Shown in pieces: positions 17,231-25,295 of a stretch of DNA of 63,401 nucleotides. Numbering within the stretch: position 1 is the stretch's first letter; each line of letters opens with the position of its first letter. Under the pieces are notes generated by a model. The model made no database searches and was not told where the DNA came from. It saw nothing but the letters and a program-made list of their open reading frames with translations. A program made the position numbers and the translations under genes. Location of the stretch: positions 1-63,401 of IMG/VR virus record IMGVR_UViG_3300042541_000733. One strand, given 5' to 3'. The DNA comes from a virus (taxonomy: Duplodnaviria; Caudoviricetes).

Positions 17231-17322
17231 CGGAGTGGGTGTTGGTACACGGGAGGGCCTTATAATCCCTTTAGCACTAGATTAGTGTTCTTGACTTGGT
17301 TCGAATCCAAGCACTCCGACCA
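17231..17322 (+). tRNA. Atypical tRNA-Ile(TAT) with long variable arm
   Basis: CGGAGTG/CACTCCG acceptor, loop CTTATAA, CTTGG-TTCGAAT-CCAAG T arm, CCA. Confidence 0.7.
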
Positions 17323-17544: not shown

Positions 17545-17626
17545 GCGAGTGTGGTGAAACGGTAGACACAGTGGTCTCAAAATCCACCGCGTAAGCATGG
17601 GGGTTCAAGTCCCTCCACTCGCACCA
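17545..17626 (+). tRNA. tRNA-Leu(CAA)
   Basis: Type II cloverleaf with CCA. Confidence 0.92.
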
Positions 17627-17641
17627 AACAAAGAAAGCAAA

Positions 17642-18265
17642 ATGAGTAGCATTTTTTACGGAGAACCCAAACAAAAGTTTGTAGGAAACTATAGAGAATG
17701 GAATGGCACTTCTCTTGATGAGAGTAAGTATTATACAGATTTAATCTATCCTCATATTGATCATGCATTAGATCATGTGACACTAGATGGACTCTATATG
17801 GAATTTGGAGTGTACACTGGACGCTCATTGAGACACACCGCAAAGAGATTGCCTAATAAGACTATTTACGGTTTTGATGTGTTCACTACAGGTTTGCCAG
17901 AATCTTGGCATTGTGTGCCACAAGGTATGTTCTCTATACCTGTTCCTGTCTTTGAGGAAAAAAATATTGAGTTGGTCGTTGGTTTATATGATGAAACATG
18001 TCCAACATTTCCTAAATCGAATGTGGCATATATGCATATTGATTGTGATTTGTATAGTTCGACTAAAACAGTGTTTGACAACTTTGCCGACTATATTGTT
18101 CCTGGAACTGTAATTGTGTTTGATGAATATTACAATTACGGAACTTATCAGGACCATGAATACAAGGCATTTAAAGAACTTTTAGAATTTCGAAAGTTGA
18201 GTTGTATTCCTTTAGGTGTTGTCGAAACGGAAGCAGCATGTCCCGCTTCTTTTCTCATAACTTAA
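17642..18265 (+). CDS. TylF/MycF-like class I SAM-dependent methyltransferase
   Basis: EFGVYTG, YGFD, HIDCDLYSST, IVFDEY. Confidence 0.85.
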   Translation: MSSIFYGEPKQKFVGNYREWNGTSLDESKYYTDLIYPHIDHALDHVTLDGLYMEFGVYTGRSLRHTAKRLPNKTIYGFDVFTTGLPESWHCVPQGMFSIPVPVFEEKNIELVVGLYDETCPTFPKSNVAYMHIDCDLYSSTKTVFDNFADYIVPGTVIVFDEYYNYGTYQDHEYKAFKELLEFRKLSCIPLGVVETEAACPASFLIT

Positions 18266-18272
18266 AAAAAGG

Positions 18273-18312
18273 TTGACAAAACTTCAATGTCCGTCTAAAA
18301 TGTATATAAATA
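18273..18312 (+). promoter_or_regulatory. Sigma70-type plus T4-late-type promoter
   Basis: TTGACA-17-TAAAAT; TATAAATA 18305-18312. Confidence 0.75.
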
Positions 18313-18334
18313 GAAATAACACTACAGGAAACAA

Positions 18335-18418
18335 ATGAAACACCGTTATTGCCCCATTGCGAATAATCAACCAAAAGGTCGTCCATCATGGGCAGACAAC
18401 GGGGGTTCTATGATTTGA
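18335..18418 (+). CDS. Putative 27-aa leader peptide
   Basis: AGGA RBS; MKHRYCPIANNQPKGRPSWADNGGSMI; overlaps alternative hairpins. Confidence 0.45.
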   Translation: MKHRYCPIANNQPKGRPSWADNGGSMI

Positions 18419-18446
18419 GTCTTGTTACAGACTTAGATTCTTAAAG

Positions 18447-18478
18447 AACCCCGATGAGGAAACTCTCGGGGTTTTGTT
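18447..18478 (+). terminator. Intrinsic terminator (possible attenuator)
   Basis: AACCCCGA..GAG-GAAA-CTC..TCGGGGTT then TTGTT. Confidence 0.75.
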
Positions 18479-18550
18479 ATGCGCCAAATGCATAGCAGCT
18501 ATGCAAAATAAAACATTGAAAAACAGACTTGCAGGCATTATCTATAGTAT
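18479..18550 (+). promoter_or_regulatory. Phage promoter family, copy C, with ATGC-N7-GCAT-N7-ATGC
   Basis: Direct match to the family. Confidence 0.8.
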
Positions 18551-18576
18551 GTGAGAGATTGAGAGAAGGAGGGGCG

Positions 18577-18771
18577 ATGCTTCACTTCGTAGGGTTTAAG
18601 GGCGACGAATACCTTCGGGCTTGTCGCATTTTCGGACTACCAGATTTCATCCATCCGGGATGGGATCTTCGTGCTCGACGGGAGATAACTCCCGATGATA
18701 CCGTTGTCTTTGCTACTGGCTCTTTTAATCAGGAGCCGCGTAGTCGGTCTTTTAGTGACCTCAAGGAATAA
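18577..18771 (+). CDS. Hypothetical protein
   Basis: AAGGAGG RBS; HFVGFKGDEY...PDFIH. Confidence 0.75.
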   Translation: MLHFVGFKGDEYLRACRIFGLPDFIHPGWDLRARREITPDDTVVFATGSFNQEPRSRSFSDLKE

Positions 18772-18821
18772 CGGTCTGCTGATTTACATTGTTAAGTTCC
18801 TAGAGATAACGAAAGTTATCT

Positions 18822-18916
18822 CTTCCGAGACACACCAGACAGGACGACAGGTTGGTTCGAAACGTCTGCGTCCGATATTAGCTTATCGAACTAAACTAGC
18901 TGGTGTGTCGCGGAAG
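18822..18916 (+). ncRNA. Candidate structured RNA
   Basis: 17-bp terminal stem with one mismatch enclosing two hairpins. Confidence 0.55.
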
Positions 18917-18929
18917 TGATAAGTTTTAT

Positions 18930-19006
18930 TCCCTTGGAGCCGGGTTGGTACCGGCACCTGACTGTTAATCAGGCCGTTATAGGTTCGAATCCTATTAAGG
19001 GAGCCA
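18930..19006 (+). tRNA. tRNA-Asn(GTT)
   Basis: Cloverleaf with CCA. Confidence 0.9.
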
Positions 19007-19010
19007 ATAT

Positions 19011-19085
19011 GCGGGTATAGCTCAGAGGTAGAGCGTCACGTTGCCAACGTGAATGTCGTGGGTTCGATCCCCATTTCCCGCTCCA
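19011..19085 (+). tRNA. tRNA-Gly(GCC)
   Basis: Cloverleaf with CCA. Confidence 0.92.
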
Positions 19086-19089
19086 ATAT

Positions 19090-19164
19090 GCGCCAGTAGC
19101 TCAGTGGTAGAGCAGGGGTCTCTTAAACCCAAGGTCAAGAGTTCAATTCTCTTCTGGCACACCA
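19090..19164 (+). tRNA. tRNA-Lys(CTT)
   Basis: Cloverleaf with CCA. Confidence 0.88.
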
Positions 19165-19169
19165 ATTAA

Positions 19170-19243
19170 GGTCTTGTAGTGAATGGATATCACACCTCTC
19201 TGTCTAAGAGGAGTAACGAGTTTGAGCCTCGTCAAGATCGCCA
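19170..19243 (+). tRNA. tRNA-Asp(GTC)
   Basis: Cloverleaf with CCA; atypical T-loop TTTGAGC. Confidence 0.85.
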
Positions 19244-19335
19244 ATAACAGCCCACCTCTTGACAATGTGGGTGCCTGACATACGGGCTTGGGGAGAGATA
19301 TAAAGTATTAAGGTATGAAACTCCTCCACCATTTA

Positions 19336-19403
19336 GTACGCCGAGCATCCTTCGGGATACGCTGGGTAGGGTTGACGGCACCCTCGCAGTACGAAAGCCG
19401 TTA
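19336..19403 (+). ncRNA. Candidate pseudoknotted RNA
   Basis: ATCC-TTCG-GGAT hairpin; AGGGT-TGACGGC-ACCCT loop complementary to GCCGTTA. Confidence 0.5.
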
Positions 19404-19404
19404 T

Positions 19405-19481
19405 CTAGGTGTGGCGAAGTCTGGTATCGCACTTGCCTTGGGCGCAAGGGGCCGCAGGTTCGAATCCTGCCACCTAGACCA
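19405..19481 (+). tRNA. tRNA-Pro(TGG)
   Basis: Cloverleaf with CCA. Confidence 0.92.
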
Positions 19482-19551
19482 ATTCATGAAGTCTGAGTTG
19501 TGGGTACACTCGTAGTGGCACAAGTAGCTGAAGGAACCCTCGCCTAATTCT

Positions 19552-19626
19552 ATCAGTGTGGTGTAGCGGTAACATGCCGGTCTCCAAAACCGTGCGTCTA
19601 GGGTTCAAATCCTTACACTGATGCCA
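19552..19626 (+). tRNA. tRNA-Trp(CCA)
   Basis: Cloverleaf with CCA. Confidence 0.9.
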
Positions 19627-24963: not shown

Positions 24964-25273
24964 ACCGTCGTTGGCCCGTGACGGTATATAAATCCTCGGG
25001 GTGTAAGTTCCTGCCTTGACCCTTCCATAAGGAATCACTGATCGCAGTAACCGCTAACGGGCCTCCAATTTAAATGCCGATTCCGACGGGAATCGGTCGA
25101 GTGCAAGGAAATGGCTGGACGCAAAGACCGGCTAACTTGGCTAGATGGTGTGGTGCCCGCGCGTGATCTACGAGAGTAGAAGATGTGTCGTCTCCGACCA
25201 AGAGAATCTAGGCTGTCACGTTGAACAGGTATCTGGGCCGTGACTTGTGGGTGTACCCGAATCCCACCTCACC
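24964..25273 (+). ncRNA. Candidate structured RNAs (two units)
   Basis: ORF-free, GC-rich, many stems; first unit ends ACGGGCC-T-CCA. Confidence 0.55.
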
Positions 25274-25295
25274 TTATTAATCAGTAGGAGCATAA

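Follow-up and report, generated by a model that had tools for sequence, protein, structure and literature searches.

A conserved leader ORF with a putative terminator/antiterminator switch ahead of a tRNA gene block in uncultured T4-like phages

The trpL, hisL, pheL and pheST leaders share a simple architecture, in which a short promoter-proximal ORF is followed by an intrinsic terminator, an antiterminator uses the 5' arm of this terminator, and the stop codon is placed such that a ribosome can mask the antiterminator strand. Other leaders, such as those of bmrCD and erm, are attenuators that respond to translation stress, and in the case of TnaC it is Rho-dependent termination that is affected by stalling at the stop codon. 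To our knowledge, the control of tRNA-array expression in large phages is hardly known. In B. subtilis, vmlR is preceded by a translation-stress, antibiotic-responsive leader attenuator (PMC9226507), and the rnTrpL/peTrpL attenuator of Sinorhizobium meliloti senses Trp via tandem Trp codons (PMC6614838 and PMC7968998). A full-text literature search, covering main texts, returned no leader-ORF attenuator ahead of phage tRNA genes.

The DNA analyzed here, hereafter called the window, is one 63.4-kb contig of a T4-like phage, the family-B DNA polymerase of which shares 50% identity with its cyanomyovirus counterpart and which also encodes UvsX and ribonucleotide reductase. A DNA search among known phages gave one match, which was irrelevant. 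The window carries 31 tRNA genes on the + strand. Within this tRNA region, with tRNA-Met and tRNA-Val on either side, a manA RNA motif (RF01745) is found at 25079-25275 (+) with a score of 59.2 bits for a gathering score of 55.2. At 17231-17322 (+), ARAGORN calls a tRNA-Ile gene with the anticodon TAT that is unusually long for a tRNA (92 nt); it is matched in Rfam by the tRNA-Sec model alone, and weakly (27.9 bits), and it is also kept in relatives.

The element of interest is located between a TylF-like methyltransferase gene and a gene of 64 codons followed by a tRNA block (Table 1). An initial annotation of this region had described a dual promoter, a ribosome-binding site, a 27-aa ORF and three pairings named 1:2, 2:3 and 3:4, the last followed by a U-rich tail. 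The ribosome-binding site, the ORF, the three pairings and the tail are all found in the window. The comparison with relatives presented below indicates that the phage tRNA block is preceded here by a real RNA switch, which is conserved and has maintained its leader ORF, and we lean, with some reserve, toward a ribosome-dependent, two-state transcription attenuator as its function.

Table 1. Features of the leader element and of its surroundings (window coordinates)
Feature	Position	Strand	Remarks
TylF-like methyltransferase gene	17597-18265		Upstream neighbour of the leader element
Sigma-70-type promoter P1	18273..18301	+	-35 TTGACA 18273-18278, 17-nt spacer, -10 TAAAAT 18296-18301
TATAAATA octamer	18305..18312	+	Homologue of the -10 box of relatives
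Shine-Dalgarno-like AGGA	18326..18329	+	5 nt upstream of ATG
Leader ORF, 27 codons + TGA	18335..18418	+	Frame kept in 18/18 distinct versions
Helix 1:2	18343-18354 with 18390-18402	+	In the MFE fold of the window
Trp-codon hairpin, 5 bp	18381..18393	+	3' arm holds the invariant Trp codon 18389-18391; overlooked by the initial annotation
Segment 2, antiterminator 5' strand	18402..18409	+	Last sense codons of the ORF
Central hairpin, 11 bp, 6-nt loop	18412..18439	+	Stop codon 18416-18418 in 5' arm; overlooked by the initial annotation
Segment 3	18445..18452	+	Common to antiterminator (with segment 2) and terminator (with segment 4)
Intrinsic terminator (predicted)	18445..18480	+	GC-rich stem, GAAA loop, U-rich tail
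Candidate internal promoter P2	18516..18544	+	TTGAAA, 17 nt, TATCTA, within conserved spacer
64-aa ORF	18577..18771	+	Strong RBS; first gene past the terminator
tRNA block Asn-Gly-Lys-Asp-Pro-Trp	18930..19626	+	Downstream of the 64-aa ORF

Relatives were gathered from viral and metagenome contigs by searches with the 64-aa protein and with a pattern derived from the leader peptide, yielding 257 loci. An nhmmer profile of the element, run on the window and these 257 loci (1.43 Mb), detects one copy per positive contig and no other copies. The positives are the window and 39 locus records, which represent about 23 uncultured-phage contigs and, once duplicates are removed, 18 distinct versions including the window. 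These distribute into class A (ten versions: window, L001, L003, L005, L006, L007, L026, L179, L180 and L181), a class-A-like variant (L015), class B (five versions: L008, L142, L143, L145 and L146) and class C (two versions: L147 and L148). From the 201 relatives of the 64-aa protein found in the metagenome scan, 80 loci were kept, and the element is present in 7 of these only, without any new class; the back-translated peptide pattern contributed one new locus only, L026. A search of viral contigs with a 14-mer from the central hairpin was discarded, its matches (at least 115) being mostly due to chance. The initial annotation had named the loss of the ORF and of the antiterminator in relatives as evidence against its reading, and conservation before tRNA arrays as a check. 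The comparison comes out in favor of this reading: 18/18 versions have retained the ORF and the place at which it stops, as well as antiterminator and terminator, with compensatory changes, and a tRNA block follows in the window and at every locus with enough downstream sequence.

P1 matches 11 of the 12 consensus positions in a sigma-70 promoter scan, and its transcript would start near 18308. Relatives inspected by reading possess TTGACA and a -10-like box at 17 nt. The proposal of a dual promoter holds in part, namely for one full promoter (P1), the supposed second one being an orphan TATAAATA octamer. This octamer also fits the T4-type late-promoter motif; its frequency in the window (5 copies, 3.4 expected) shows no enrichment and lends no support to a late-promoter role. 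By eye, a GGA or GGAG is found within about 10 nt of the start codon in 12 of the 18 distinct versions, a Shine-Dalgarno motif is missing in four, and the two class C versions, in which the start lies 7 nt past the -10 box, look leaderless. The -35 box of the leader promoter has, in classes B and C, inverted repeats on both sides (8-12 bp; L147, about 1255-1300; L142, about 1265-1310). These repeats differ in sequence and have an A-run ahead of them; they could serve as a terminator upstream of the leader, as an operator or as an element working in both directions.

In each of the 18 versions the leader ORF, of 26-31 codons, has its start codon in place and stops at the conserved position. Its indels are all multiples of 3 (class A has four gap columns, class B one). 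At the peptide level, L008 of class B is 26% identical to class A. Variable sites of the class A ORF are spread over codon positions 1, 2 and 3 as 10/9/10, with 25 amino-acid and 7 synonymous variants, so that there is no coding signature other than the frame itself. Such a kept frame with a mostly free sequence is the pattern expected of a regulatory leader ORF and, from sequence comparison, appears to fit a free functional peptide poorly. The window peptide gives no match to Pfam or NCBIfam families, nor do the class B and C peptides to NCBIfam. A short core is nevertheless found in all classes, consisting of an Arg, two to three residues and then an invariant Trp, and it largely overlaps the Trp-codon hairpin; the pattern FEGR..W.D is common to classes A and C. 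Each version contains one Trp codon and one Arg (CGY) codon.

The leader ORF has no codon run for a sensed amino acid, in agreement with the initial annotation, which had added that the leader samples many amino acids; this latter argument is void, as any 27-residue peptide does so. The idea that the leader is enriched in the residues of the downstream tRNAs was rejected: by hand count, these make up 13/27 residues in the window but 7/29 and 7/31 in the other two classes. The conserved Arg codon (18380-18382 in the window, with equivalents in all 18 versions) is CGT or CGC, and the only tRNA-Arg encoded in the window and at the loci of relatives has the anticodon TCT. A tRNA-Arg with this anticodon is not expected to read CGY codons, and decoding of the conserved codon would thus depend on the host.

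The terminator stem extends over 18445-18475 in the MFE fold (10 + 3 pairs), or over 18446-18474 by helix walk (12 pairs), and is followed by the tail TTTTGTTAT, in which the U-tract of the window is short (TTTTGTT). A hairpin of 12-15 pairs with a GNRA loop and a U-rich tail is found in all 18 versions, and the counterparts in L015 and L147 pass a terminator scan. The whole RNA of 178 nt folds at -50.3 kcal/mol, with z = -3.6 and none of 200 shuffles as good. Helix 2:3 has 8 bp and is the best partner of the terminator arm across the upstream transcript, with -13.9 kcal/mol against a shuffle mean of -7.1 (p = 0.003, 1000 dinucleotide shuffles), this duplex being weaker than the terminator hairpin (-20.0 kcal/mol). 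Furthermore, the best partner of the terminator 5' arm is the end of the ORF in 17/17 versions tested, with p values per sequence (1000 shuffles) from 0 to 0.18, class B lying between 0.05 and 0.18. In these 17 versions the antiterminator strand begins 8-10 nt downstream of the Trp codon and ends 2-6 nt upstream of the stop codon, a position at which a terminating ribosome would hide the antiterminator.

The antiterminator helix occupies the same place in all classes, with letters that differ from class to class. Indeed, in a MAFFT alignment that was not fitted to any structure, 90.1% of its 152 cells are paired and four of its nine pairs have changes on both sides. None of 500 shuffles reaches this value, and sliding the partner by 1-3 columns lowers it to 26-68%; these shuffle controls make the result look more significant than it is, as the 17 versions represent three or four independent lineages only. 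The outer helix of the terminator behaves similarly (91.4% paired, 4/9 double changes), and RNAalifold, run unprompted on the same alignment, returns a consensus made of the Trp-codon hairpin and helix 2:3. In this consensus the Trp-codon hairpin pairs columns 54-58 with 66-70, one pair being changed on both sides. A hairpin is located at or just past the stop codon in all 18 versions, and at least two bases of the stop codon are within its 5' arm in 16 of them; the 3' arm of this central hairpin is nearly invariant across class A.

Helix 1:2 is of a different nature. Its outer five pairs are intact in the window only, the closest relatives having one or two mismatches and the L005 group none of these pairs, and in other classes segment 2 pairs with other upstream pieces, which in class B is the start-codon region. 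The pairings 1:2 and 2:3 had been described as mutually exclusive; they have only G18402 in common, and both occur in the MFE of prefixes ending at 18453-18470. Judged from the aligned versions, a conserved anti-antiterminator is thus not part of the element, and the trp-like four-segment logic is unsupported. The layout of ribosome-controlled attenuators that had been recognized at this locus stands for the short ORF behind a promoter, the intrinsic terminator before genes and the antiterminator using the terminator 5' arm, and falls for a 1:2 helix excluding 2:3 and for a regulatory codon run, leaving a two-state arrangement. As there is no conserved 1:2 helix, an untranslated leader is predicted to read through, the opposite of a trp leader.

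The consequences of this arrangement were examined by folding with a ribosome simulated by keeping the nucleotides -15 to +12 relative to the A-site codon unpaired, a footprint assumed from general knowledge. Before the 3' arm of the terminator is made, 6-9 of the first 10 bases of its 5' arm pair with the end of the ORF in 18/18 versions, whether the ribosome is left out or placed at the Trp codon. Placing it on the stop codon abolishes this pairing completely (18/18), a result that follows from the chosen mask and shows only that the geometry fits. The full-length naked RNA adopts the terminator fold in all 18 versions.

We propose that, during elongation from P1, segment 2 would pair with segment 3 around the central hairpin before segment 4 exists. 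A ribosome reaching the last codons or the stop would cover, with a footprint of about -15 to +12 around 18416, segment 2 together with the central hairpin's 5' arm; segment 3 would then be freed, the GAAA-capped terminator would form and a leader RNA of about 165 nt would be released. When a ribosome lags behind, pauses no further than the Trp codon or is missing altogether, the antiterminator would hold for a time, and its persistence would let the polymerase continue through the 64-aa ORF to the tRNA genes. Overall, good translation would give less read-through into the tRNAs and poor translation more. The parts on which this scheme is built, their conservation, their covariation and their geometry are observed in the sequences; translation of the ORF, termination at the hairpin and a deciding role of the ribosome position are inferred from them.

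Downstream of the terminator, class A possesses a nearly invariant spacer of about 100 nt with a promoter-like block. In the window, P2 fails the promoter scan because of a rule on the last -10 base, and the P1 -10 box of relatives, TATAAA, fails likewise. Its counterpart in L015 (TTGACT/17/TATATT, 10/12, the site being matched by reading the sequences) is the sole one of class A type to pass. A promoter-like element after the terminator reduces the dependence of the tRNAs on read-through in class A; the window tRNAs may, as far as the sequence goes, have a second and independent promoter, in which case control by the attenuator would be limited to RNAs started at P1 or further upstream. The spacer also contains a repeated ATGCAAAA-like motif (window 18479-18576; L001 2909-3000; L015 5280-5400). 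Classes B and C have no spacer, the U-tract running into the ribosome-binding site of the 64-aa ORF, and in L147 the scan detects no promoter between the terminator and the next gene. Without a promoter there, the 64-aa gene of these classes and the tRNAs behind it would need read-through.

Searches of Pfam, PHROG and NCBIfam place the 64-aa protein in no family, and the Atlas gave no usable match either. Its confident model is a beta-alpha-beta-alpha-beta fold (pLDDT 89.3) for which no fold match was found in the PDB, the best Foldseek E-value being 4.3. The family is widespread: the metagenome scan yielded 201 relatives, and many of these come from high-GC contigs. Distant homologues (L166-L177, about 50% identity) are preceded by another conserved RNA, a long imperfect hairpin of about 130 nt without leader ORF, located about 150-20 nt upstream of the match (e.g. 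L169 1330-1480), which may be another structured leader for this gene family. Neither L026 nor L015 has the 64-aa ORF after the element (in L015 it is located 2 kb upstream), and in both loci the element has a tRNA-Leu(CAA) before it and a tRNA-Asn after it. The element therefore precedes tRNA-Asn even without the 64-aa ORF, and its stable partner is the tRNA block. The interval between the 64-aa ORF and tRNA-Asn (window 18772-18929) contains a conserved motif shared with L026 (1696-1763) and L015. At this place in L026, ARAGORN calls a defective tRNA-like gene, so that the stretch could be either the remnant of a tRNA or a signal for processing. Finally, contigs from RNA libraries (four runs) cover the leader, the 64-aa ORF and the tRNAs, and one such contig of a relative spans the terminator tail into the spacer; these are assembled contigs, which cannot show transcript ends and for which DNA carry-over is possible.

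About 170 nt enclosed by a promoter and a terminator could also be a self-contained small gene, in which P1 would drive a 27-aa micropeptide or a dual-function small RNA ending at its own terminator, the downstream genes being served by a promoter of their own (P2 in class A) or by leakage, and helix 2:3 acting in mRNA stability or processing. The peptide core that crosses classes, with Arg 3-4 residues ahead of the invariant Trp and FEGR..W.D in A and C, points in this direction, as does the promoter-like element past the terminator of class A, the L015 counterpart of which passes the scan. Trans-acting leader RNAs and peptides are moreover known, namely rnTrpL and peTrpL (PMC6614838, PMC7968998). 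However, the peptide evolves fast, being 26% identical between classes and counting, within class A, 25 amino-acid variants for 7 synonymous ones, and it belongs to no Pfam or NCBIfam family. Such a gene would need neither the covariation between the last codons and the terminator arm nor a stop codon fixed 2-6 nt past the segment, and classes B and C leave no space for a promoter before the next gene. We consider this explanation, the main rival of the attenuator, rather doubtful.

A covarying pair of alternative helices is equally what would be seen if the terminator/antiterminator switch were real but set by something other than a ribosome, such as a protein encoded by phage or host, a small ligand or tRNA, temperature, or folding kinetics as such, with an incidental ORF and with helix 2:3 and the stem of the central hairpin possibly forming a processing site. 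The core of the ORF is conserved at the nucleotide level with little freedom at third positions, which fits a constraint on the RNA, and the nearly invariant 3' arm of the class A central hairpin goes in the same sense. Against this, an untranslated RNA would not require a frame, a start and a stop position kept in 18/18 versions with in-frame indels only, and a search of Rfam 15, T-box included, gave no match in 18273-18478 at E up to 1, the same search detecting the tRNAs and the manA motif. This makes a switch of that kind improbable in our view. Least credible is the absence of any regulation, that is a constitutive and partly leaky terminator behind a chance ORF, with coincidental complementarity. 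The modest p values of class B sequences (0.05-0.18) and the small number of independent lineages leave some room for it, but the constant position of the antiterminator site in 17/17 versions, the compensatory changes in four of nine pairs, the conservation of the ORF and of the central hairpin across classes and the fold z of -3.6 render it highly improbable.

Should the element be the ribosome-dependent attenuator that we favor, it might serve, as a more tentative extension, as a sensor of translation capacity providing feedback on the phage's own tRNA supply. Prompt completion of the leader would stop transcription from P1 and from upstream before the Asn-Gly-Lys-Asp-Pro-Trp block. Slowed decoding, for instance when infection leads to the degradation of host tRNAs or anticodon nucleases cleave them, would let the antiterminator persist and more phage tRNA be made, with the CGY Arg and the Trp codons as perhaps preferred stall points. 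If the two-state switch operates as suggested, tRNA-gene transcription would be tied directly to ribosome performance in a simple feedback circuit. This bears on the current debate over the reason for tRNA genes in phages, the explanations under discussion being codon usage, host shut-off and evasion of tRNA-cutting defences. The sensor reading would mean a ribosome-mediated attenuator over tRNA genes, and this in a virus. Even without a ribosome trigger, the element would be a new covariation-supported family of RNA switches from uncultured T4-like phages.

As compared with the trpL, hisL, pheL and pheST leaders, the phage element likewise comprises an ORF, a terminator, an antiterminator sharing an arm with it and a masking position of the stop codon. 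In contrast to them, it has neither a codon run nor a conserved 1:2 helix, and its predicted default when untranslated is read-through and not super-attenuation. The genes concerned are also different, with the tRNA genes of a lytic T4-like phage here and biosynthetic genes behind the trpL-type leaders. The short leader peptide, with an invariant Trp about 7-8 residues from the stop codon, recalls TnaC and SecM, but the terminator of the phage element is intrinsic and not Rho-dependent as for TnaC. As with rnTrpL/peTrpL, the leader RNA released by termination and the leader peptide may each have a separate function, for which the conserved Arg..Trp core leaves room here, although there is no sequence relation to that system and the phage leader has a single Trp codon. 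By analogy, the logic of the element seems closest to that of translation-stress leaders such as vmlR (PMC9226507). Leaders of this type control drug-induced cellular resistance genes and have no sequence homology with the element, which precedes a phage tRNA array; in both cases, however, a short ORF without codon run would allow a general slowing of ribosomes to be read as a signal for read-through into a stress-relieving gene, the phage tRNAs being here the proposed ones.
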